From: Escherichia coli
GTDB lineage: Bacteria > Pseudomonadota > Gammaproteobacteria > Enterobacterales > Enterobacteriaceae
Strand: one strand, 5' to 3'
Assembly (NCBI RefSeq): GCF_029227855.1
Contig: NZ_CP074356.1
Length of the DNA stretch: 64,000 nt
Part shown: positions 1 through 64,000 of the stretch, one piece after another
Layout of the letters: the number at the start of each line of letters is the position of its first letter
Numbering within the stretch: position 1 is the stretch's first letter
The notes under the pieces: generated by a model
What the model was told of the DNA's origin: nothing
What the model saw: only the letters and a program-made list of their open reading frames with translations
Database searches by the model: none
Program-made: the position numbers and the translations under genes

Positions 1-2135
1 GCCCGTTCCCAGTGCGGTTCGCTGTAGGTGCGTTTAATCAAATGCTGAGCAACTGGCTCCACCCATTCTGGATCGATGCGTGCCGCAATGCGCCCCCACA
101 GGCGGCTGGTTTCTACCAGTTCCGCCACCATTACCCATTTCGGCGGCTTTTTAAATAAGCCGGAACCGGGGAAAATGGAGAAACGCGCGTTACGTGCGCC
201 GGTATATTCTTGTTTATCGGCATCTTTCATGCCGATATGGGAAAGCAAACCCGTCAGCAACGCAATGTGAATTTCGCGATATTCCGCCGGTTCGCTGTTA
301 ACCGGAATGCCAAGTTCTTTCACCACCTGGCGCAACTGGGTGTAGATATCCTGCCATTCGCGCACGCGCAGATAGTTGAGATAATCGGTACAACACAGGC
401 GACGGAAGGCGTTGGAAGAAAGAGCCTTTTGCTGCTCGCCAAGATAATTCCACAGATTCACAAACGCGAGGAAGTCAGACTCTTTGTCGTGGAAGCGACA
501 ATGTTTTTCGTCCGATGCCTGCTGTTTGTCCATCGGTCGTTCGCGCGGATCCTGGATGGAGAGCGCGGACGTGATAATCATCGCCTCACGCACGCAGCCA
601 TGTTTTTGCGCTTCCAGCACCATACGCGCCAGACGAGGATCGACAGGCAACTGCGAGAGCTGGCGACCGAGCGGCGTCAGTTTATAGGCGCTGGCCTGTT
701 CATCCGTGGTGATCGCGCCCAGCTCTTCGAGCAGACGCACGCCATCCTGGATATTACGTTTATCCGGTGCTTCGACAAATGGGAACGCGGCGATATCGCC
801 CAACCCCAGCGCGGTCATCTGTAAAATAACCGAGGCCAGGTTGGTACGCAGAATCTCCGGATCGGTAAACTCCGGGCGCGAGAGGAAATCGTCTTCGGAA
901 TAGAGACGAATACAGATCCCTTCGGACACACGACCACAGCGGCCTTTACGCTGGTTGGCAGACGCCTGCGAAATGGGCTCAATCGGCAAACGCTGCACTT
1001 TGGTGCGATAGCTGTAGCGGCTGATACGCGCCGTACCTGGGTCGATAACGTATTTAATCCCCGGTACGGTCAGCGACGTTTCCGCGACGTTGGTCGCCAG
1101 CACAATGCGCCGTCCACTGTGCGACTGGAACACGCGGTTCTGTTCGCTGTTCGAAAGCCGCGCATAAAGCGGCAAGATTTCGGTATGGCGTAAGTTCAGC
1201 TTGTTCAGCGCATCGGCGGTATCGCGAATTTCCCGCTCACCGCTCATAAAGATCAGAATGTCGCCGGGACTTTCCTGGCTCAGTTCGTCTACGGCGTCAA
1301 AAATCGCCTGCAACTGATCGCGCTCGGTATCATCGGCTTCTTCAACAATCGGGCGATAGCGCACTTCCACCGGATAGGTCCGGCCGGAGACTTCGATAAT
1401 CGGCGCATTATTAAAGTGGCGCGAAAAGCGTTCCGGGTCGATAGTCGCGGAAGTGATAATGATTTTTAGGTCAGGACGTCGCGGCAGCAACTCTTTCAAA
1501 TAGCCGAGCAGAAAATCGATATTCAGGCTGCGTTCGTGCGCTTCGTCAATAATGATAGTGTCGTACTGCATCAGCAGGCGGTCTTGCTGGATCTCCGCCA
1601 GCAGGATACCGTCGGTCATCAGCTTGACCATCGTATTATCACTTACGTGATCGCTGAAACGCACTTTGTAACCGATGCAACCGCCCGGCTCAGTTTTCAG
1701 CTCTTCCGCAATACGGTTGGCCACCGTTCGTGCCGCCAGACGACGCGGCTGGGTATGACCGATCAGCCCTTTAATCCCGCGCCCCAGCTCCATACAGATT
1801 TTCGGTAGCTGAGTCGTTTTACCGGAACCGGTTTCCCCGGCGACGATCACCACCTGGTGATCACGAATCGCTTCGAGAATGTCCTGCTTTTTCTGACTAA
1901 CCGGTAAATTGTCAGGATAAGTAATTTCCGGACGTGCCGCTTCACGCAGCAGGACTTTCCCTGCCGCCTGGTCAATCTCTTTCGCCATCTCCTGGAAAAT
2001 GGCCTGTTGTGCATCAGGATTTTTAACCTTCTTCACACCGTGAAGACGGCGTAAAAAACGCTGTCTGTCGCGCAGCATCAGCGAATCCAGCCGCTGCTGC
2101 AAGGCCGTAAAGGTCAATTTTTGTTGTTCTGTCAT
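1..2135 (-). CDS. hrpA: ATP-dependent RNA helicase HrpA, N-terminal part (about 711 codons; gene continues beyond window start)
   Basis: Reverse-strand ATG at 2133-2135 translates MTEQQKLTFTAL...; no minus-strand stop-delimited ORF is reported between 1 and 2135, consistent with one open frame running off the window. Confidence 0.88.
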   Translation of the reverse strand, partial: MTEQQKLTFTALQQRLDSLMLRDRQRFLRRLHGVKKVKNPDAQQAIFQEMAKEIDQAAGKVLLREAARPEITYPDNLPVSQKKQDILEAIRDHQVVIVAGETGSGKTTQLPKICMELGRGIKGLIGHTQPRRLAARTVANRIAEELKTEPGGCIGYKVRFSDHVSDNTMVKLMTDGILLAEIQQDRLLMQYDTIIIDEAHERSLNIDFLLGYLKELLPRRPDLKIIITSATIDPERFSRHFNNAPIIEVSGRTYPVEVRYRPIVEEADDTERDQLQAIFDAVDELSQESPGDILIFMSGEREIRDTADALNKLNLRHTEILPLYARLSNSEQNRVFQSHSGRRIVLATNVAETSLTVPGIKYVIDPGTARISRYSYRTKVQRLPIEPISQASANQRKGRCGRVSEGICIRLYSEDDFLSRPEFTDPEILRTNLASVILQMTALGLGDIAAFPFVEAPDKRNIQDGVRLLEELGAITTDEQASAYKLTPLGRQLSQLPVDPRLARMVLEAQKHGCVREAMIITSALSIQDPRERPMDKQQASDEKHCRFHDKESDFLAFVNLWNYLGEQQKALSSNAFRRLCCTDYLNYLRVREWQDIYTQLRQVVKELGIPVNSEPAEYREIHIALLTGLLSHIGMKDADKQEYTGARNARFSIFPGSGLFKKPPKWVMVAELVETSRLWGRIAARIDPEWVEPVAQHLIKRTYSEPHWER

Positions 2136-2326
2136 AACGTTAGTGGGCAGTAGTCTGCCTGATTAATTTTCTTTTAAATGATAGATATAGAGTACCACAT
2201 CGCGGCTTTCTATGCGTTGTTCAATAAATTCGAACATAGGCTTCGATTTATTGCGCTATCTCTGTGGCAGGATTGTGAATAAAGTGTCAACAAGCAACGG
2301 GGCATCGCCCATTCAAACATCTATAA

Positions 2327-2941
<615 letters not shown>

Positions 2942-2954
2942 CCGGACACGATCT

Positions 2955-2984
2955 TGATGTGGACTGTAGATATTCAGTCCACAT
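2955..2984. terminator. 11-bp perfect inverted repeat between convergent azoR and ynbD (likely bidirectional terminator)
   Basis: gatgtggactg-tagatatt-cagtccacatc seen directly between the two stop codons. Confidence 0.5.
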
Positions 2985-2994
2985 CTCAATCCGC

Positions 2995-6049
<3,055 letters not shown>

Positions 6050-6064
6050 TTTCTCTATTTTCCT

Positions 6065-6961
6065 TCAGTAACAGCAGTAGCGAATAAAATAAAAAAATAC
6101 CGGAGCGGTGAAAATTAATGAGTCAATCCTGTCAAGGAGTCCGCCATGTCCTGGTAATAGTTTTCCACTATCTTTAACACCAATATCTCGTTTGATGGCT
6201 GACATCACTACATCGCCGCAAAAACCACTAATACCAATTAACAAACCCGCTAATAATGCCTGTAATGTATCTAGCGGTGTCAGCAACGGTCCAATAATCA
6301 GTGACGCAATCATGGTGGTGATTACGCCGCCCATCAGACCTTCCAATGTTTTTCCCGGGCTGACTTTAGGGACCACTTTTCTTCTGCCGCAGGATTTTCC
6401 CCATAAATACTGTGCAATATCGTTTGACTCGGTTAATGCCAAAAGAAATAACACCAGTAACGCCCCGCCCTGGATATTTGTGGTTGGCAACATTAATAAC
6501 CAGGCGGCATGACTCAAGGCGAAAACGGTCATTATCCAGCCACAAAAAATGGCGCTCACGGTATGCAGAAAACCGGAGGGGTCACCCACTAAAACTCGCC
6601 AGGTGGCTAATATCAGAAACCCAGCCAAAGGTATAAATAACAGAAACAGCTCAAAGCAATTAAAACCGATAAGCAAATAGTTAAGAGGAATACCCCAATA
6701 TAACCAACGCGGAAAATGTACAGATATAAGCGTACAATATTCTTTCAATGCCAGAAAACTTATCAGCGCAAAAAACGTCAACGTCATCCAGCGTGGACCT
6801 GAAATCACCATTGAAAAACAAATGACGATGCCCCACCAAGTACGAATACGTAATGTAACTTCATCCCCTTTTCTCTCCGGTAACCGCCATACCAGAAAAC
6901 GGTTTATCAGCGTTGCTAAAATTAACAACGCGAAAAGTGTTGCCAGAGATTTTTCCAGCAT
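6065..6961 (-). CDS. ynbB: CDP-diglyceride synthetase (CdsA)-family integral membrane protein
   Basis: 298-aa polytopic membrane ORF; start ATG overlaps ynbA stop (ATGA). Confidence 0.85.
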   Translation of the reverse strand: MLEKSLATLFALLILATLINRFLVWRLPERKGDEVTLRIRTWWGIVICFSMVISGPRWMTLTFFALISFLALKEYCTLISVHFPRWLYWGIPLNYLLIGFNCFELFLLFIPLAGFLILATWRVLVGDPSGFLHTVSAIFCGWIMTVFALSHAAWLLMLPTTNIQGGALLVLFLLALTESNDIAQYLWGKSCGRRKVVPKVSPGKTLEGLMGGVITTMIASLIIGPLLTPLDTLQALLAGLLIGISGFCGDVVMSAIKRDIGVKDSGKLLPGHGGLLDRIDSLIFTAPVFFYFIRYCCY

Positions 6962-7572
6962 TATCTTTCAGCGCTCATAAGAAGCACACTCCGACAACGA
7001 TTAATCGCAGTCCAGAGAAGCAGAATTGAAGCAATGCTCCATAAAAGATTATTCCATTGCATCCATTGTGGATAAATGGCAATGGCCAGACCCCACAGAC
7101 CAAATATTAACGCGCGATCGCTTTTGCCAAATGGACCGACATAACTACGAATACCGTTAATCGTCTGCGCGAGTAAACCGCAAAACTCGGTCAATATGGT
7201 GCAAAATAACATGATTATCACGAGTGATGCGTTACTTTCCGGTAAAAATAAAAACGGTAAATAGAGCGCAATATCGGAAATAACATCGCCAGTCTCATTC
7301 AAAATCGCCCCAAGACGTGTTTGCTGATTGCACTCACGCGCCAACATGCCATCCAGCGCATTGAGTGCCATACGAATAAAAAGCACAATGGGCAATAGCA
7401 AAAAGAGGATGGGTTGTGCCACCAACATCAACAGCAATCCGCTAAGAAGAGAAAGTGCCAGTGCAGCAAGAGTGATGTGATTCGCTGTAACATGGTGCTT
7501 ATTAAGCCAAAACATCGTCGGCCTTAACAGCGACTGAAAGAGCGGTTTTATCTGGTAGAGCGTCATTATCAA
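6961..7572 (-). CDS. ynbA: CDP-alcohol phosphatidyltransferase-family membrane protein
   Basis: 203-aa hydrophobic ORF, first gene of the ynbABCD operon. Confidence 0.85.
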   Translation of the reverse strand: MIMTLYQIKPLFQSLLRPTMFWLNKHHVTANHITLAALALSLLSGLLLMLVAQPILFLLLPIVLFIRMALNALDGMLARECNQQTRLGAILNETGDVISDIALYLPFLFLPESNASLVIIMLFCTILTEFCGLLAQTINGIRSYVGPFGKSDRALIFGLWGLAIAIYPQWMQWNNLLWSIASILLLWTAINRCRSVLLMSAER

Positions 7573-56768: not shown

Positions 56769-57800
56769 ATGATCGCTGAACTGTTTACAAATAATGCGCT
56801 TAATCTGGTCATTATTTTCGGTAGCTGCGCAGCATTGATTCTGATGAGCTTTTGGTTTCGCCGCGGAAATCGTAAAAGAAAAGGTTTTTTATTCCATGCG
56901 GTGCAATTTTTAATCTACACCATAATTATCAGTGCTGTTGGTAGCATCATTAATTATGTTATAGAAAACTATAAACTCAAATTTATCACCCCAGGCGTTA
57001 TCGATTTTATCTGTACGTCCCTGATTGCGGTTATTCTGACGATTAAGCTATTTCTGCTGATTAATCAGTTTGAAAAACAGCAGATTAAAAAAGGTCGCGA
57101 TATCACCAGTGCGCGGATTATGTCGCGTATCATCAAAATCACCATTATTGTGGTGCTTGTTCTGCTTTATGGCGAACATTTCGGCATGAGCCTTTCTGGC
57201 TTGTTGACCTTTGGTGGTATTGGTGGTCTGGCTGTCGGTATGGCCGGTAAAGATATTCTGAGTAACTTCTTTTCCGGGATTATGCTCTATTTCGACCGTC
57301 CTTTTAGTATTGGCGACTGGATCCGTTCACCGGACAGAAATATCGAAGGTACAGTATCGGAAATTGGCTGGCGAATTACCAAGATTACGACTTTTGATAA
57401 TCGTCCGTTGTACGTACCGAACTCGCTGTTTTCGTCAATCAGCGTAGAAAACCCAGGACGAATGACCAACCGGCGCATTACCACGACCATTGGTTTACGT
57501 TATGAGGATGCGGCAAAAGTGGGCGTTATTGTCGAAGCCGTACGTGAGATGCTGAAAAATCACCCGGCCATTGACCAGCGACAAACCTTACTGGTTTATT
57601 TCAACCAGTTTGCTGACTCCTCATTGAATATTATGGTTTATTGCTTTACCAAAACCACGGTATGGGCTGAATGGCTTGCTGCACAGCAAGACGTTTATTT
57701 GAAGATTATCGATATTGTACAGTCACACGGCGCGGACTTTGCCTTCCCCAGCCAGACGCTGTATATGGATAACATTACACCGCCGGACCAGGGTCGCTAA
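56769..57800 (+). CDS. ynaI: MscS-family low-conductance mechanosensitive channel
   Basis: 343-aa ORF with N-terminal TM helices and MscS-like core. Confidence 0.88.
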
Positions 57801-57850
57801 ATCAGACATCACTGGCGTTATCCACAAGGGTAACGCCAATTCCCATCACA

Positions 57851-59464
57851 TCAATGCTTCACAATATACATAGTCCGACTGTACGCCACATCTTCCGGGT
57901 TATTAATGGGATAACCTTTCAGCCACGGCTTGATTAATCGTCCATTGGTATATTGATAAATTGGTGCAATCGGTGCTTGCTCCATGAGGATTTTTTCTGC
58001 CGCATTGTAATCGGCATTACGCGCTTTAACGGTATTTTCCGTTGATGCCTGGGCCAGTACTTTGTCGTATGCCGGATTGTTAAAGCGTGAAATATTCCCT
58101 GAATGCGTTGACGTTAACAACGTAAGGAAAGTGGAGGGTTCATTATAATCCCCTACCCATGAGGCGCGGATAACATCAAAATTGCCGGTGTTACGGCTAT
58201 CGATATAGGTTTTCCATTCCTGATTCTGCAATTTAACATCTACGCCAAGGTTCTTTTTCCACATCGATGCTACAGCAATCGCAATTTTTTGATGGTTTTC
58301 TGAAGTGTTATACAAAAGCGTCAGCTTCAGCGGTTTTTGCGGACCATAACCAGCTGCGCTCAACAAAGTTTTTGCCTGCGCATTCAGTTCTTCCTGACTC
58401 ATTTGTTCAAACGGCGAAGGCTCCGGCGTAAAACCGGCAGTAACATCTGGTGTAAAATGCCACGCTGGCTTTTCCCCCGTCCCCAACACTTTTTCGGTCA
58501 TCAGGCGGCGATCTATCGTCATACTTAATGCCAGGCGAACACGCTGATCGGCCGTCGGCCCTTTTTGCGTGTTAAACGCATAATAATAGGTCCCGAGCTG
58601 CGGCGGCGTATAAACCTGCCCCGGAATATCCTTCAACAGCTTCTGATACATATTTTTCGGGAAGGATTCGGTGATATCAATATCCCCCGCGAGATAACGC
58701 TTAGTGGCTGCGGATTCCTGATTAATTGGCAGGAAGGTCACTTTTTGCAGCACCGTTTTGGCGTTATCCCAATAATGGGTATTCGGTACCACGACCAGTT
58801 TTTCATTGACTACGCGCTCTTTAAGAACATAAGCGCCATTACCGATCAGTTTTCCGGGTTTCGTCCACTCTTTACTACTTTCTACGTTGGCTTTTTGCAC
58901 CGGGAAGAAGGCAAAGTTAGCGGTTAAATTCACAAACCACGGCAACGGTTTATCAAGCTGGATTTTCAAAGTATGGGCATCAACTGCGGTGACGCCAAGC
59001 TGGTCAGGCGTGGCTTTACCATCAATAATCGCCTGTGCGTTGTTGATTCCCGCCAGCGCGGCAAACCATGCAAATGGCGACAATGTTTTTGGGTCCACCA
59101 GACGTTGCCAGCTGTAGACAAAATCTTGCGCCGTTACCGGTGTGCCATCCGCCCATTTTGCGTTATCGCGCAAGGTAAAAGTCCAGATACGGTTGTCATT
59201 ACTTTTCCACTGAGTCGCAACGCCGGGGACAATCTCCCCTTTCTCGTTCTGATTCACCAGTCCTTCAAACAGATCGCGAATGACCTGAATCTCCGGCAGG
59301 CCCACGGCTTTAGCGGGATCCAGCGACGCTGGCTCATCTTTAATGTGGCGCACCAGCTCCTGCTTCTCTGCCAGTACTGTGCCGCTCGGAACTTCAGCAG
59401 CATACGAAAGAGAAATGCTGCTGACCAACAGCGCACAACACGTGACTGAAACAGAGTGCTTCAT
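57851..59464 (-). CDS. mppA: Periplasmic murein tripeptide-binding protein
   Basis: 537 aa from MKHSVSVTCCALLVSSISLSYA (signal peptide); OppA-like solute-binding protein family 5. Confidence 0.9.
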   Translation of the reverse strand: MKHSVSVTCCALLVSSISLSYAAEVPSGTVLAEKQELVRHIKDEPASLDPAKAVGLPEIQVIRDLFEGLVNQNEKGEIVPGVATQWKSNDNRIWTFTLRDNAKWADGTPVTAQDFVYSWQRLVDPKTLSPFAWFAALAGINNAQAIIDGKATPDQLGVTAVDAHTLKIQLDKPLPWFVNLTANFAFFPVQKANVESSKEWTKPGKLIGNGAYVLKERVVNEKLVVVPNTHYWDNAKTVLQKVTFLPINQESAATKRYLAGDIDITESFPKNMYQKLLKDIPGQVYTPPQLGTYYYAFNTQKGPTADQRVRLALSMTIDRRLMTEKVLGTGEKPAWHFTPDVTAGFTPEPSPFEQMSQEELNAQAKTLLSAAGYGPQKPLKLTLLYNTSENHQKIAIAVASMWKKNLGVDVKLQNQEWKTYIDSRNTGNFDVIRASWVGDYNEPSTFLTLLTSTHSGNISRFNNPAYDKVLAQASTENTVKARNADYNAAEKILMEQAPIAPIYQYTNGRLIKPWLKGYPINNPEDVAYSRTMYIVKH

Positions 59465-59521
59465 AAGTTTCCCTCTAACCGACATTAAAATTGATGCGTA
59501 ATTATTTGTTTCGCCTTAAAG

Positions 59522-59551
59522 AAATGCAAACAACTTCCATCAAAAAAGTGA
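59522..59551. repeat. 30-bp motif, copy 1 (aaatgcaaacaacttccatcaaaaaagtga), in the pgrR-mppA spacer
   Basis: 28 of 30 identical to copy 2 at 62633-62662. Confidence 0.7.
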
Positions 59552-59800
59552 CAAAGGAAGCATCAAATGTTTTAAGTATCAATATATCAAATCAGATTTA
59601 GTGTAAATAATAGTCTCCAAAATGCGGTAAAGCACATAGAACTCCGAACACTACGTTCGGGCTTCGCACGTTCAAACCCGTTTTCGGTATCATAATCAGC
59701 ATCTGTCGCCATTGTACGAAGAATAAAAAATGACCAAAACGTTGAAAGGAACTGAGAATACGTTAAGAGAAGAATTAAATTAATGTATCAGCAAGTAGTG

Positions 59801-60700
59801 CTAAACAGCACCTTTATACTTCAGCCTATCTATAAATAATGAGAATGCCGAGCCAGCATGTCGACGGTGTGGATAGTACAGGTGATAACCGGGTAAATCT
59901 GGTGTGAATTTATCCAAAACACGTATCAGTTTTTTTTCTTTAATAGCCCGCTCAACCTGATCATAAGGTAGATACGCCAATCCATGCCCATCAATTGCAG
60001 CATCAATGATCAGGTCTATCGTATTCAGTAAAAGCTGACCTTCCATGCGAACACGAACTTCACGTCCACCGCGTATTAATCTCCAGCGATTTGCTGTACC
60101 CGATGTGGGAAGATACAAATTAATTGCCTGATGATCTATTAATTGTGACACTGACGTTGGAGCACTTCGACGAGAAAAATAATCCGGTGAACCAACAATA
60201 GCCATTGGTATATCTGGCCCGATTCGAATGGCGATCATATCTTTATCCATCTCCCCACCCAGACGGACGCCTGCATCAAAACGTTCAGAAACGACATCGG
60301 TCAAACCATAATCAATGGTAAGCTGGATATCAATTTCAGGATGCGATTTCAGGAATGTGCGCATAGCTGGTAACAATATCGTTTTTGCTGCATGTTCTAC
60401 AGTAGTAATACGTATTGTCCCGGATGGGCGGTTCTGCAGATCGCTCAGGGATGTCAGGGCAGAATCTATGTCATGCAACATAGGGCCAAGAACAGACAAA
60501 AGATGCTCGCCCGCTTCAGTGGGTACAACGCTGCGCGTGGTTCGCGTCAGAAGCCGCAATCCCAATCGTTCTTCTATACGGCGCACTATCTGGCTTAAAG
60601 CTGACTGCGCCATGCTCAGGCGGGCTGCTGCGCGAGTGAAGCTACGCTCCTCTGCAACGACGACAAACGCCATCAGATCAGCGATTTCTTCACGCTTCAT
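59801..60700 (-). CDS. pgrR: LysR-family regulator of murein peptide degradation
   Basis: 299-aa ORF with N-terminal LysR HTH; divergent from ycjY. Confidence 0.88.
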   Translation of the reverse strand: MKREEIADLMAFVVVAEERSFTRAAARLSMAQSALSQIVRRIEERLGLRLLTRTTRSVVPTEAGEHLLSVLGPMLHDIDSALTSLSDLQNRPSGTIRITTVEHAAKTILLPAMRTFLKSHPEIDIQLTIDYGLTDVVSERFDAGVRLGGEMDKDMIAIRIGPDIPMAIVGSPDYFSRRSAPTSVSQLIDHQAINLYLPTSGTANRWRLIRGGREVRVRMEGQLLLNTIDLIIDAAIDGHGLAYLPYDQVERAIKEKKLIRVLDKFTPDLPGYHLYYPHRRHAGSAFSLFIDRLKYKGAV

Positions 60701-60724
60701 TCAGTATCTCCATACAATCTATTA

Positions 60725-60738
60725 ATCATTTAAATGAT
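60725..60738. promoter_or_regulatory. Perfect 14-bp palindrome ATCATTTAAATGAT in the pgrR / ycjY divergent promoter region (candidate LysR-type operator)
   Basis: Palindrome of LysR T-N11-A type 25-40 bp upstream of the pgrR start; direct repeat GGTCTAATCA x2 immediately adjacent. Confidence 0.4.
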
Positions 60739-60837
60739 AGGTCTAATCATAATTTAGGGTCTAATCAACTTAATGATCAATATCTATAGTGATATCACCA
60801 ACCGCCAAAACGAACCGACAACTCCATGAGGAACGGA

Positions 60838-61758
60838 ATGATGAATAATAAAGTCAGCTTCACTAACAGCAATAATCCAACCATCTCTTTGTCTGCAGTG
60901 ATCTATTTCCCTCCAAAATTTGATGAAACCCGTCAGTATCCGGCAATTGTGGTATCTCACCCAGGTGGGGGCGTTAAAGAGCAAACGGCCGGAACCTATG
61001 CCGAAAAACTGGCGGAAAAGGGATTTGTCACTATTGCTTATGACGCATCTTATCAAGGTGAAAGCGGCGGCGAGCCGCGTCAGTTAGAAAACCCATACAT
61101 TCGTACTGAAGACGTCAGTGCCGTGATTGATTACCTGACAACGCTTTCTTATGTCGACAATACCCGAATTGGTGCGATGGGAATTTGTGCCGGTGCAGGA
61201 TATACAGCCAATGCTGCAATTCAGGATCGCCGCATCAAGGCCATCGGTACTGTTAGTGCGGTCAATATTGGTTCGATGTTCCGTAATGGTTGGGAAAACA
61301 ATGTGAAATCTATTGATGCCCTACCATACGTTGACGCGGGTTCAAACGCCCGAACCAGCGATATTAGTAGCGGAGAATACGCCACTATGCCACTGGCACC
61401 AATGAAGGAGTCCGATGCGCCGAACGAAGAACTGCGTCAGGCCTGGGAGTATTACCACACCCCTCGCGCGCAGTATCCAACAGCACCGGGTTACGCTACT
61501 TTGCGCAGCCTTAACCAGATTATTACCTATGATGCTTACCATATGGCGGAAGTGTACCTGACTCAGCCGATACAGATTGTGGCGGGCAGCCAGGCAGGGA
61601 GCAAATGGATGAGTGACGACCTGTACGATCGAGCATCAAGCCAGGATAAACGCTATCACATTGTTGAAGGCGCAAACCATATGGATCTTTATGACGGCAA
61701 AGTCTATGTGGCTGAAGCAATTTCAGTATTAGCTCCGTTCTTTGAGGAAACTCTGTAA
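60838..61758 (+). CDS. ycjY: Alpha/beta-hydrolase (dienelactone hydrolase-like) protein
   Basis: ORF 60826-61758 (310 aa); start at MMNNKVSFTNS chosen to give about 306 aa, uncertain by a few codons. Confidence 0.85.
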   Translation: MMNNKVSFTNSNNPTISLSAVIYFPPKFDETRQYPAIVVSHPGGGVKEQTAGTYAEKLAEKGFVTIAYDASYQGESGGEPRQLENPYIRTEDVSAVIDYLTTLSYVDNTRIGAMGICAGAGYTANAAIQDRRIKAIGTVSAVNIGSMFRNGWENNVKSIDALPYVDAGSNARTSDISSGEYATMPLAPMKESDAPNEELRQAWEYYHTPRAQYPTAPGYATLRSLNQIITYDAYHMAEVYLTQPIQIVAGSQAGSKWMSDDLYDRASSQDKRYHIVEGANHMDLYDGKVYVAEAISVLAPFFEETL

Positions 61759-61828
61759 TGAAACATATTCAAATCCGTAATAGTGATATGGCCTGGCATA
61801 TTGCTGCCAATAATCTGGGAAAAGTTTC

Positions 61829-62467
61829 ATGAAAAATGTACTGATTCTTGGTGCTGGCGGTCAGATAGCCCGCCATGTGATTAATCAACTGGCAGATAAA
61901 CAAACCATTAAACAAACTTTATTTGCCCGTCAGCCAGCAAAAATCCACAAACCCTATCCCACTAATAGCAAGATTATTATGGGGGATGTACTGAATCATG
62001 CAGCACTGAAGCAGGCCATGCAGGGACAGGATGTTGTGTATGCCAACCTTACGGGGGAAGATTTAGATATTCAGGCAAATTCAGTGATCGCTGCGATGAA
62101 AGCCTGTGATGTTAAACGTCTGATCTTTGTTCTTTCCCTCGGTATTTATGATGAAGTTCCAGGAAAATTTGGCGAATGGAATAATGCAGTTATTGGTGAG
62201 CCCCTAAAACCATTCCGCAGGGCTGCGGATGCAATTGAGGCTTCTGGACTGGAATATACAATTCTTCGCCCTGCCTGGCTGACTGATGAAGATATTATTG
62301 ATTATGAGCTTACCTCACGCAATGAACCATTCAAAGGTACGATCGTATCACGTAAGAGTGTCGCAGCATTAATCACAGATATCATCGATAAACCTGAGAA
62401 ACACATTGGTGAGAATATAGGCATCAATCAACCCGGGACTGATGGTGATAAGCCCTTCTTCATGTAA
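61829..62467 (+). CDS. NAD(P)-binding Rossmann-fold protein (NmrA/atypical SDR-like), intact 212 aa
   Basis: MKNVLILGAGGQIARHV (GxGxxG/A NAD-binding motif); lies between ycjY and mpaA where K-12 is annotated with ymjC/ymjD fragments (from memory). Confidence 0.8.
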   Translation: MKNVLILGAGGQIARHVINQLADKQTIKQTLFARQPAKIHKPYPTNSKIIMGDVLNHAALKQAMQGQDVVYANLTGEDLDIQANSVIAAMKACDVKRLIFVLSLGIYDEVPGKFGEWNNAVIGEPLKPFRRAADAIEASGLEYTILRPAWLTDEDIIDYELTSRNEPFKGTIVSRKSVAALITDIIDKPEKHIGENIGINQPGTDGDKPFFM

Positions 62468-62632
62468 ATCAATTATATAGCTACCATCGTACTGTACTAT
62501 GTGCAGTACGATTTATTAAACTTATTAAGGTGAACTGATCAATCAGATGCGATTAACATGTGTAGAACCAGTAAGAATAAAATACGCCATGTATATAACA
62601 TTACGACAATTCTAATATCTGCACATCAATGA

Positions 62633-62662
62633 AAATGCAAACAACTTCCGGCAAAAAAGTGA
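62633..62662. repeat. 30-bp motif, copy 2 (aaatgcaaacaacttccggcaaaaaagtga), about 100 bp upstream of mpaA
   Basis: 28 of 30 identical to copy 1 at 59522-59551. Confidence 0.7.
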
Positions 62663-62757
62663 TACAAGATAGATGACATAGCGTTGAAGAAAAGGATTTG
62701 ATAATCCGCAAAATTTGCACAACACTGCCTGTAATACTTCCTGAACCAGAGACGATC

Positions 62758-63486
62758 ATGACCGTAACTCGCCCACGCGCCGAACGCGGCGCATTTCCGC
62801 CCGGAACAGAACATTACGGACGTTCATTATTGGGCGCGCCGTTAATCTGGTTTCCTGCCCCTGCAGCCAGCCGCGAAAGTGGTTTGATTCTGGCTGGCAC
62901 TCACGGTGATGAAAACTCTTCGGTCGTCACGCTCTCCTGTGCTCTGCGAACGTTGACACCTCCTTTGCGCCGTCATCATGTGGTGCTGTGTGTGAATCCT
63001 GACGGCTGCCAGTTGGGGTTACGGGCCAATGCTAATGGTGTGGATTTAAACAGAAACTTTCCGGCGGCGAACTGGAAGGAAGGTGAAACCGTTTATCGCT
63101 GGAACAGCGCCGCTGAAGAACGTGATGTCGTATTGCTGACAGGTGACAAACCTGGCTCCGAACCTGAAACCCAGGCGCTGTGCCAGCTTATACACCGCAT
63201 TCAACCTGCCTGGGTGGTCTCATTCCACGATCCGCTGGCCTGTATTGAAGATCCCAGACACAGCGAATTAGGCGAATGGCTGGCCCAGGCGTTTGAATTG
63301 CCTCTGGTAACCAGCGTCGGTTATGAAACACCTGGCTCTTTCGGTAGTTGGTGTGCAGATCTCAACTTGCATTGCATCACCGCAGAGTTTCCACCCATCT
63401 CCTCCGACGAAGCCAGCGAAAAATATCTCTTTGCGATGGCAAACTTGCTGCGCTGGCATCCTAAAGATGCAATTCGCCCGTCGTGA
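62758..63486 (+). CDS. mpaA: Murein peptide amidase A (gamma-D-Glu-meso-DAP amidase, M14 family)
   Basis: 242 aa from MTVTRPRAERGAFPPG; zinc carboxypeptidase-like HGDE motif (GTHGDENSS). Confidence 0.88.
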   Translation: MTVTRPRAERGAFPPGTEHYGRSLLGAPLIWFPAPAASRESGLILAGTHGDENSSVVTLSCALRTLTPPLRRHHVVLCVNPDGCQLGLRANANGVDLNRNFPAANWKEGETVYRWNSAAEERDVVLLTGDKPGSEPETQALCQLIHRIQPAWVVSFHDPLACIEDPRHSELGEWLAQAFELPLVTSVGYETPGSFGSWCADLNLHCITAEFPPISSDEASEKYLFAMANLLRWHPKDAIRPS

Positions 63487-64000
63487 ACTGAAGCGCCGGT
63501 TCCACATCTACCGCCAGCCATGTCGGTCCGTCAAGATCGGCGAAACTGACCTGCGGCACCAGCGGTAAAGCGGCGCTAATGGCCCGAGAGGTACACAACA
63601 TGCAGCCCAGCATCAGACGAAAACCTTGTGCACGCGCTTCAGTCGCCAGCGCCAGCGCTTCCGTCAGACCACCGGTTTTATCAAGCTTAATGTTAACCAT
63701 CTCATAGCGCCCTTTCAGCGCCTTAAGATTGCTACGAGTATGACAACTTTCATCAGCACAAATCGGTAACGGATGAATAAAATTCTCCAGCGCCGCATCG
63801 TCCTGCGCAGGAAGCGGTTGTTCAAGCATCGCAACGCCTAAATCTGCCAATAGCTGGCAACGCGCCGCCAACCCTTCTGCACGCCAGGATTCATTTGCAT
63901 CAACGATCAGCGTCGCATCGGGCACAGCTGTGCGAATTGCCACCATCCGCTCACTGATAAGATGGTTATCCAGCTTCACTTTCAGTAATTTCGCGCCTGC
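63461..64000 (-). CDS. ycjG: L-Ala-D/L-Glu epimerase (enolase superfamily), C-terminal part; gene continues beyond window end
   Basis: Open minus-strand frame from the window edge reading ...AGAKLLKVKLDNHLISERMVAIRTAV...FTTGELHL; 26-bp convergent overlap with mpaA. Confidence 0.85.
   Translation of the reverse strand, partial: AGAKLLKVKLDNHLISERMVAIRTAVPDATLIVDANESWRAEGLAARCQLLADLGVAMLEQPLPAQDDAALENFIHPLPICADESCHTRSNLKALKGRYEMVNIKLDKTGGLTEALALATEARAQGFRLMLGCMLCTSRAISAALPLVPQVSFADLDGPTWLAVDVEPALQFTTGELHL

Follow-up and report, generated by a model that had tools for sequence, protein, structure and literature searches.

A 30-bp target duplication brackets the foreign pgrR-ycjY-SDR cassette between mppA and mpaA in Escherichia coli

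Introduction

DNA insertions bordered by a duplication of the target, and their subsequent deletion between these short direct repeats, are well known. Bacterial transposases duplicate 2–14 bp of their target, and homology-facilitated illegitimate recombination is described as giving microhomology joints, often with a deletion, rather than a clean 30-bp duplication. Here, we describe a pair of 30-bp direct repeats in a 64,000-nucleotide stretch of an Escherichia coli chromosome (contig NZ_CP074356.1; the whole stretch is hereafter called the window). The repeats lie on either side of pgrR, ycjY and a gene for a short-chain dehydrogenase/reductase (SDR), a block that separates mppA from mpaA, the genes for the murein tripeptide binding protein and the murein tripeptide amidase. 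An initial annotation, made from the letters of the window, had drawn attention to this pair.

The genes in question belong to the PgrR regulon of E. coli K-12, in which pgrR is divergent from ycjY-ymjDC-mpaA and the site found by systematic evolution of ligands by exponential enrichment (SELEX) lies in the ycjY/pgrR spacer (Shimada et al. 2013, as cited in PMC5934670). In the SELEX list given there, the PgrR target at this locus is this same spacer (ycjY/ycjZ), and the spacers next to mppA and mpaA are unlisted. Promoters of the ycjY/pgrR spacer are also listed in PMC3946193, and ymjC was scored as a variable gene in one pan-genome study (PMC9602453). Our literature search found no paper describing an insertion or deletion between mppA and mpaA or the 30-bp repeats.

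Results

Two direct repeats of 30 bp with unrelated flanks

A pattern search of the window allowing up to three mismatches returned exactly two matches, both on the plus strand, namely AAATGCAAACAACTTCCATCAAAAAAGTGA at 59522–59551 (copy 1, in the context …TTCCATCAAA…) and AAATGCAAACAACTTCCGGCAAAAAAGTGA at 62633–62662 (copy 2, in the context …TTCCGGCAAA…). The copies are identical at 28 of 30 positions and differ solely at positions 18–19, which read AT in copy 1 and GG in copy 2. None of 100 dinucleotide-preserving shuffles matched the 30-mer, and local alignment compared with shuffles found the flanks outside the 30 bp to be unrelated on both the left and the right side (p about 0.9 and 0.7, respectively). 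A repeat search stretched the pair to 37 nt at 86% identity, yet the seven added nucleotides match at only 4/7 positions; the duplication spans exactly 30 bp. From start to start, the copies are 3,111 bp apart, i.e. one repeat plus 3,081 bp. The initial annotation had reported the two plus-strand copies with their unrelated flanks, had excluded a chance match and had given the gene order as mppA, pgrR, ycjY, SDR gene and mpaA; all of this held up, the gene order agreeing with the list of open reading frames (ORFs) and with the annotation of the Prokaryotic Genome Annotation Pipeline (PGAP).

The region was found in 5,418 of 5,426 complete E. coli genomes, and the stretch in the window is 100% identical to E. 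coli JNEC-KY178. When two queries containing the 30-mer were searched against the 5,418 genomes, in a count that covers near-exact copies, they hit 10,666 and 10,656 places, about two per cassette-bearing genome and one per genome with the empty site described below. A dispersed high-copy repeat, which the initial annotation had named as the outcome that would refute it, is not what these counts describe. Likewise, an Rfam search of positions 57000–64000 (E ≤ 1) gave no family at either copy, its lone match being a sub-threshold RAGATH-10 inside pgrR, and the 30-mer has no hairpin potential. With nothing in its favour beyond the existence of two copies, membership in a family of the REP, ERIC or MITE kind has, in our view, a negligible probability. 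Neither the K-12 nor the PGAP records annotate a gene at either copy.

The single-copy site is ancestral

One of the lowest-ranking E. coli matches, strain NRZ105822, has mppA next to mpaA across a 182-bp spacer with a single 30-mer. The left flank of this 30-mer is the left flank of copy 1 in the window and its right flank is the right flank of copy 2, and the two copies in the window are therefore direct repeats bounding a 3,111-bp insertion or deletion. The same empty-site junction is present in 174 of the 5,426 complete genomes (about 3%), and both the empty and the filled site are thus observed within the species.

For the polarity of this difference, we searched MpaA against one genome per bacterial species, which returned 80 loci. 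In nearly all of them, mppA (minus strand) and mpaA (plus strand) are adjacent and divergent with about 180–200 bp between them. This arrangement occurs in about 70 species of Enterobacteriaceae, none of which carries pgrR, ycjY or the SDR gene between the two genes; they include E. albertii, E. whittamii and several other Escherichia as well as members of Citrobacter, Enterobacter, Leclercia, Lelliottia, Kluyvera, Kosakonia, Pluralibacter, Trabulsiella and Yokenella. Outgroup loci hold at most one recognizable, degenerate copy of the 30-mer, at the equivalent position about 97 bp upstream of mpaA, and among the 80 loci the only filled structure outside E. coli was that of Escherichia sp. E1V33. 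Given the absence of the cassette and the presence of no more than one copy in the outgroups, the single-copy arrangement is ancestral and the E. coli state is an insertion with a 30-bp target duplication. The 30-mer pair is the duplicated target sequence around the inserted pgrR-ycjY-SDR cassette: copies in the same orientation bracket the insert, relatives have an unoccupied single-copy site and the bracketed DNA is foreign, as detailed below. Of the origins proposed in the initial annotation, the remnant of a short duplication was the correct one, and the empty site and the outgroups refine it to a target duplication flanking the cassette.

The spacer also holds other DNA in other strains. 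In Salmonella enterica subsp. arizonae and diarizonae, this mppA–mpaA spacer is occupied by another island, AT-rich and about 3.1 kb long (about 3850–6990 of one of the loci), which has other junctions and three lipoprotein-like ORFs (191, 217 and 270 aa) and has replaced the conserved blocks close to mppA; the spacer has therefore been invaded independently. In E. coli MFDS1019527, a prophage (with a tyrosine integrase and NinB; 1621–3066 of its locus) has taken the place of most of mppA, of which a 66-bp stub is left beside an empty-type spacer, and the short residual left flank is closer to Escherichia sp. MOD1-EC7003 than to E. coli. Moreover, 6–12 matches to the mppA–mpaA chromosomal region in the E. 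coli genome searches fell on records typed as plasmids.

The insert is foreign and resembles a random chromosomal fragment

The window allele of the insert is 3,081 bp long; the fullest one in E. coli, from O111:H8, reaches about 3.98 kb and has four genes (the LysR-type regulator pgrR, two alpha/beta hydrolases and the SDR oxidoreductase). The insert has a GC content of 44%, compared to 50% for the window. Relatives of YcjY with 82–89% amino-acid identity were found in Pluralibacter, Rhizobium, Agrobacterium, Mesorhizobium, Sphingobium and Burkholderia, and identities in this range are unusually high for alpha- and beta-proteobacteria, taxa so distant from E. coli. Relatives of the SDR protein at 79–85% identity occur in Serratia, Klebsiella, Raoultella, Citrobacter, Kluyvera and Enterobacter. 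On the contigs of these relatives, a module consisting of a minus-strand LysR gene and two hydrolase genes, in some cases extended by the SDR gene and further by adh_short and OYE genes, lies at unrelated loci without mobility genes (Serratia marcescens, C. koseri, Klebsiella/Salmonella, Pluralibacter and metagenomes). The high YcjY identities suggest that the LysR-hydrolase module has spread widely by horizontal transfer.

Compared by blastn, the O111:H8 allele is about 79% identical at the nucleotide level to the Klebsiella/Salmonella and C. koseri modules, with homology beginning exactly at the stop codon of pgrR and ending 77 bp beyond that of the SDR gene, where the fifth gene of those modules has its start codon. 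Beyond these limits, the insert ends in orphan DNA on both sides (Table 1). We found no terminal inverted repeats at its ends, and no sequence resembling the 30-mer (up to nine mismatches) around 13 related cassettes, covering loci of 12–15 kb; the homology boundaries of the other cassette copies also differ from the ends of the E. coli insert. PGAP labels part of the left orphan end as a queH fragment, a label that stays unconfirmed as its 31–41 aa translation had no NCBIfam or Pfam match. Given the orphan ends, the truncated neighbour gene, the lack of terminal inverted repeats and the absence of the 30-mer from the related loci, the insert resembles a random chromosomal fragment and not a mobile element. 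A classical duplication by a transposon or insertion sequence (IS) was considered and rejected, with no terminal inverted repeats, no annotated transposase and a duplication of 30 bp.

The cassette varies among E. coli strains. In O111:H8, the second alpha/beta hydrolase is intact (4759–5691 of its locus), and such alleles are about 880–900 bp longer than that of the window. O145:H28 has an internal stop in the second hydrolase, ECO20 an internal deletion across pgrR/ycjY, and in some strains IS5 or IS30 has inserted. Decay of the cassette is thus under way in many lineages. A K-12-type deletion of 666 bp (window 61967 / 62632–62633), which joins …CTAATA to AAATGC…, turns the SDR gene into the ymjD/ymjC remnants. 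Its right end and the left edge of copy 2 are no more than 1 nt apart, with a microhomology of only 1 nt, and the same junction is found in Escherichia sp. E1V33 (about 6862–6877 of its locus).

Recombination between the copies removes the cassette

A chimeric query joining the left flank, the AT-type copy 1 and the right flank of copy 2 was searched in the E. coli genomes. It matched 14 genomes at ≥98.7%, and the remainder of the 174 empty sites match the GG version. Four AT-type strains that we examined have four different MppA alleles. A 36-mer diagnostic for AT next to the right flank occurs in 107 genomes, at least 14 of which are empty sites; we inspected three of the 107, O145:H28, SMS-3-5 and O139:H1, and each proved to be filled, with AT at copy 1 as well as copy 2 and hence perfect 30/30 repeats, suggestive of gene conversion between the two copies in these strains. 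Since such AT/AT filled alleles exist, an AT scar alone is no proof of a chimera between copy 1 and copy 2.

The most informative strain is CP131_Sichuan, an empty site whose scar joins the AT of copy 1 to the right flank of copy 2. Compared to K-12 (filled, AT/GG), it shows 0/922 differences in the left flank and 0/1,338 in the right flank (0/2,260 in total); in equivalent stretches, unrelated alleles differ at 5–32 positions. Based on the identical flanks and the chimeric scar, a K-12-type allele has lost its cassette through an exchange within the final 11 bp of the repeat. Judged from these alignments, CP131_Sichuan shows a recent precise excision by recombination between copies 1 and 2. 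Its pairing with K-12 also speaks against a single deep clade of empty-site E. coli with flanks basal to all filled alleles. SCU-172 and MS21-1, both empty, likewise have 0/1,338 right-flank differences from filled SMS-3-5, and PT62, AR_0077 and NRZ105822 represent further distinct empty haplotypes, such that empty sites are found on at least five flank haplotypes. Loss of the cassette is therefore recurrent.

With respect to the two variable positions, the state at positions 18–20 in the closest outgroups is GGC (Escherichia sp. MOD1-EC7003, strain E69 and E. albertii), with GGT in E. whittamii and variable in distant genera, and copy 1 of E1V33 has GG plus the T10 variant of its own clade. 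The simplest history would therefore be GG/GG at the time of insertion, a change of copy 1 from GG to AT in E. coli and a later conversion of copy 2 to AT in some lineages. The flanks of the common GG-type empty allele (ST648-like) are nested within the diversity of E. coli and are not basal. In E1V33, the flanks are closest to those of the empty E. whittamii (cassette region 4431–6906 of its locus).

Precise insertion with a long repeat on each side, precise and recurrent excision, the occurrence of the LysR-hydrolase module at many unrelated loci without mobility genes, and the independent 666-bp deletion that ends within 1 nt of copy 2 could also be explained if the 30-mers were attL/attR-like sites for enzyme-catalysed mobilization of cassettes without mobility genes, comparable to Xer-dependent modules flanked by dif. 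We consider this very unlikely. There is no recombinase gene in or beside the cassette, and the 30-mer has neither dyad symmetry (26% of shuffles have an arm at least as long as its best one of 4 nt) nor more than a 9–10/28 match to E. coli dif. Furthermore, no 30-mer-like sequence lies at the other cassette loci examined, where the boundaries differ, the insert ends in orphan DNA and a truncated neighbour gene as a random fragment would, and crossovers on either side of positions 18–19 in the scars fit homology-driven exchange. An integrase or Xer attachment site was accordingly rejected as a candidate. A broader version, in which the 30-mer would be the recognition or breakage site of a host-encoded activity that inserts and excises LysR-hydrolase cassettes, a chromosomal analogue of dif-module or integron-like exchange, is a long shot; such an activity would account for the long clean duplication, the recurrent precise excision, the conversion of copies and the endpoint of the 666-bp deletion.

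The duplicated sequence is part of an ancestral control region

We aligned the single-copy mppA–mpaA spacers of 29 species and strains. Near-invariant blocks are GTAATTATTTGTTTC, AAATGCAAA (the first third of the 30-mer) and AAAnTGAT (the end of the 30-mer), followed closer to mpaA by GAAAAC-ATTTGATTA and TTTTGCACAACACTG. On the mppA strand, the AAATGCAAA block reads TTTGCA/TTGCAT and is situated 17–18 nt from a conserved AATAAT within GTAATTATTTGTTTC, and a consensus scan picks the same site, which is hence a predicted sigma-70 promoter of mppA with its −35 element inside copy 1. None of the 11 distinct filled E. coli alleles sampled deviates in copy 1, whereas copy 2 has substitutions in its AAATGCAAA block, G5A in A33 and ECO20 and A9T in GF131, and the block is apparently redundant in copy 2. 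The scan found no sigma-70 consensus promoter upstream of mpaA. Despite this, GAAAAC-ATTTGATTA and TTTTGCACAACACTG (window 62690–62735) are near-invariant across genera of the Enterobacteriaceae, and these blocks are candidates for a regulator site.

The initial annotation had proposed a shared regulatory site. This is right insofar as the 30-mer is a piece of the ancestral mppA/mpaA control region, with conserved blocks that include a −35-like hexamer, and wrong insofar as the likeness of the copies comes from descent and not from selection for a common factor. A shared operator, recognized by PgrR or another regulator and selected at both sites to co-regulate MppA-dependent uptake and MpaA-dependent degradation, would be in line with the position of both copies upstream of peptidoglycan-recycling genes, with the conservation of parts of the 30-mer across genera (it is probably contacted by some protein, namely RNA polymerase and perhaps also a regulator) and with a second TTGAT-containing block closer to mpaA. 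We nevertheless regard it as unlikely, as descent from one site, present once in empty-site strains and in all outgroups, already explains both copies. In addition, the PgrR targets listed in PMC5934670 include the ycjY/ycjZ spacer and neither the mppA spacer nor the one proximal to mpaA, pgrR is absent from the locus in all other genera yet the sequence is conserved there, the dyad symmetry typical of LysR-type sites is not above chance, and copy 2 gathers substitutions in its most conserved block.

The same alignment speaks to the suggestion that a small protein gene begins in each copy (MQTTSIKKV…, 25 codons; MQTTSGKKVIQDR, 13 codons). An ATG does lie within the conserved AAATGCAAA, and the 13-codon frame is kept in Escherichia. 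Across genera, however, the frame varies from 4 to more than 44 residues with frame-shifting indels, the ATG is missing in four genera (Enterobacter genomosp. O, Trabulsiella, Kluyvera and Citrobacter sp. NCU1), conservation tracks DNA blocks and not codons, and nothing is annotated in the K-12 or PGAP records. No ribosome-binding (Shine-Dalgarno) site was found for either ORF, as the initial annotation had itself remarked. The coding interpretation is thus extremely improbable.

Table 1. Features of the mppA–mpaA locus in the window.
Feature	Position	Strand	Basis
mppA, encoding the murein tripeptide binding protein; left neighbour of the ancestral site	57851..59464	-	ORF list; PGAP, in record NZ_AP045174.1 (100% identical)
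Sigma-70 promoter-like site for mppA (predicted)	59501..59530	-	−35 TTTGCA 59530–59525 (within copy 1), 18-nt spacer, −10 AATAAT 59506–59501; consensus scan and conservation
Repeat copy 1, AT variant, left junction of the insertion	59522..59551	+	Pattern search, empty-site comparison
Left orphan end of the insert, 248 bp, 36% GC	59552..59800		No homology to other cassette copies
PGAP queH (epoxyqueuosine reductase) pseudogene fragment, unconfirmed	about 59614–59706	-	Annotated in NZ_CP077585.1 and NZ_CP006027.1
Terminator-like hairpin downstream of pgrR, within the left orphan end	59644–59660	-	Hairpin scan
pgrR (LysR-type regulator), cassette gene	59801..60700	-	ORF list, PGAP; homologous modules elsewhere
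ycjY (alpha/beta hydrolase 1), cassette gene	60838..61758	+	PGAP; homologues elsewhere
Stub (about 54 bp) of the second alpha/beta hydrolase gene	61758..61812	+	Intact in O111:H8, deleted in the window allele
SDR/NmrA-like oxidoreductase, cassette gene (ymjD/ymjC remnants in K-12)	61829..62467	+	PGAP; homologues elsewhere
Spacer homologous to other cassette copies	62468..62526		blastn boundary; homology ends where six-gene versions start the fifth gene (adh_short)
Right orphan end of the insert, 106 bp, AT-rich	62527..62632		Homology boundary
Repeat copy 2, GG variant (the outgroup state), right junction of the insertion	62633..62662	+	Pattern search, interspecies alignment
Remaining ancestral mpaA upstream region, conserved blocks GAAAAGGATTTGATAATCC and TTTGCACAACACTG	62663..62757	+	Interspecies alignment
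mpaA, encoding the murein tripeptide amidase; right neighbour of the ancestral site	62758..63486	+	ORF list, PGAP

Discussion

Taken as a whole, a target duplication caused by insertion of a foreign cassette, with later removal of the cassette by recombination between the repeats, is in our opinion a highly probable account of this locus. In the ancestor, mppA and mpaA were neighbours and diverged from a shared spacer of about 180 bp with one 30-mer. In the Escherichia lineage, a LysR/two-hydrolase/SDR fragment, cut from a larger module and carrying unrelated DNA at both ends, then inserted into this spacer and left 30 bp of the target at each side. The comparisons show the empty and the filled site, the foreign nature of the insert and the exact limits of the duplication. 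Crossing-over or slippage between the direct repeats removes the cassette precisely and restores the ancestral order, and identical flanks together with a chimeric scar show that this has happened repeatedly in E. coli. In some lineages the copies have also exchanged sequence, such that both read AT. The duplication may also have given each gene its own piece of the old shared control region, with copy 1 supplying the −35 region of the mppA promoter and the upstream T-tract, and copy 2 keeping the distal conserved block before mpaA. As to its origin, we tentatively suggest that the duplication might have arisen from a staggered break with fill-in, or from another illegitimate end-joining or template switch, rather than from a transposase or integrase.

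Several observations weigh against this account. We identified no process that produces a 30-bp target duplication, and Campbell-type integration through 30 bp of homology may have been an alternative route. No recombinase, transposase, integrase or tRNA is annotated in or beside the cassette, and neither an immediate donor nor orphan ends of the E. coli type were found among the 13 related cassette contexts. The common ST648-like GG-type empty allele differs by about 1.1% from the nearest filled allele and could be either an old deletion or a surviving allele that was never filled. In E1V33, divergence from E. coli amounts to 10–13% in the flanks and about 7% at the left junction, but the interior of the cassette is about 98% identical to K-12, a mosaic pointing to recombination between species at this locus; the insertion may thus be older than E. 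coli, with frequent loss afterwards, or homologous recombination may have carried it from one species to another. Finally, the putative mppA promoter is assigned from consensus match and conservation.

What had looked like a 30-bp coincidence is now read as a structural event, and this has several implications. The regulator pgrR, named for peptidoglycan recycling, belongs to a horizontally transferred LysR-hydrolase-SDR cassette, and its link to mpaA may reflect where that cassette landed and not an ancient regulatory design. The compact divergent mppA/mpaA unit, with its strongly conserved control blocks, offers better candidates for the real regulation of murein-tripeptide salvage. The repeats furthermore make the cassette a reversible presence/absence polymorphism, a point of relevance wherever ymjC, ycjY or pgrR is scored in pan-genome association studies. 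Lastly, illegitimate insertion does not usually leave a footprint of this kind, a clean duplication of 30 bp in the absence of any mobile-element machinery.

Compared with known systems, the locus shares with homology-facilitated illegitimate recombination an insert that looks like a random foreign chromosomal fragment, with a truncated fifth gene, orphan ends and a possible, unconfirmed queH relic. With genomic islets bounded by attL/attR, such as integrase islands and Xer-dependent IMEX/dif modules, it has in common repeats of tens of base pairs, precise integration and excision and an accessory metabolic cargo; here, however, there is no integrase or tRNA, the site is neither dif-like nor dyad-symmetric and the other cassette copies are not bounded by the 30-mer. 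Unlike the target duplications made by transposases, the one described here is 30 bp long and comes without terminal inverted repeats or a transposase. The genes are those of the K-12 PgrR regulon, but our data indicate that at this locus the pgrR cassette came late and divided an older, widely conserved mppA/mpaA control region; it is absent from the locus in about 3% of E. coli and in all other genera examined. The features that the locus shares with insertion-flanking target duplications in general are direct copies of recipient sequence that bracket foreign DNA, a single-copy empty site in relatives and precise removal by recombination or slippage that leaves one copy behind.

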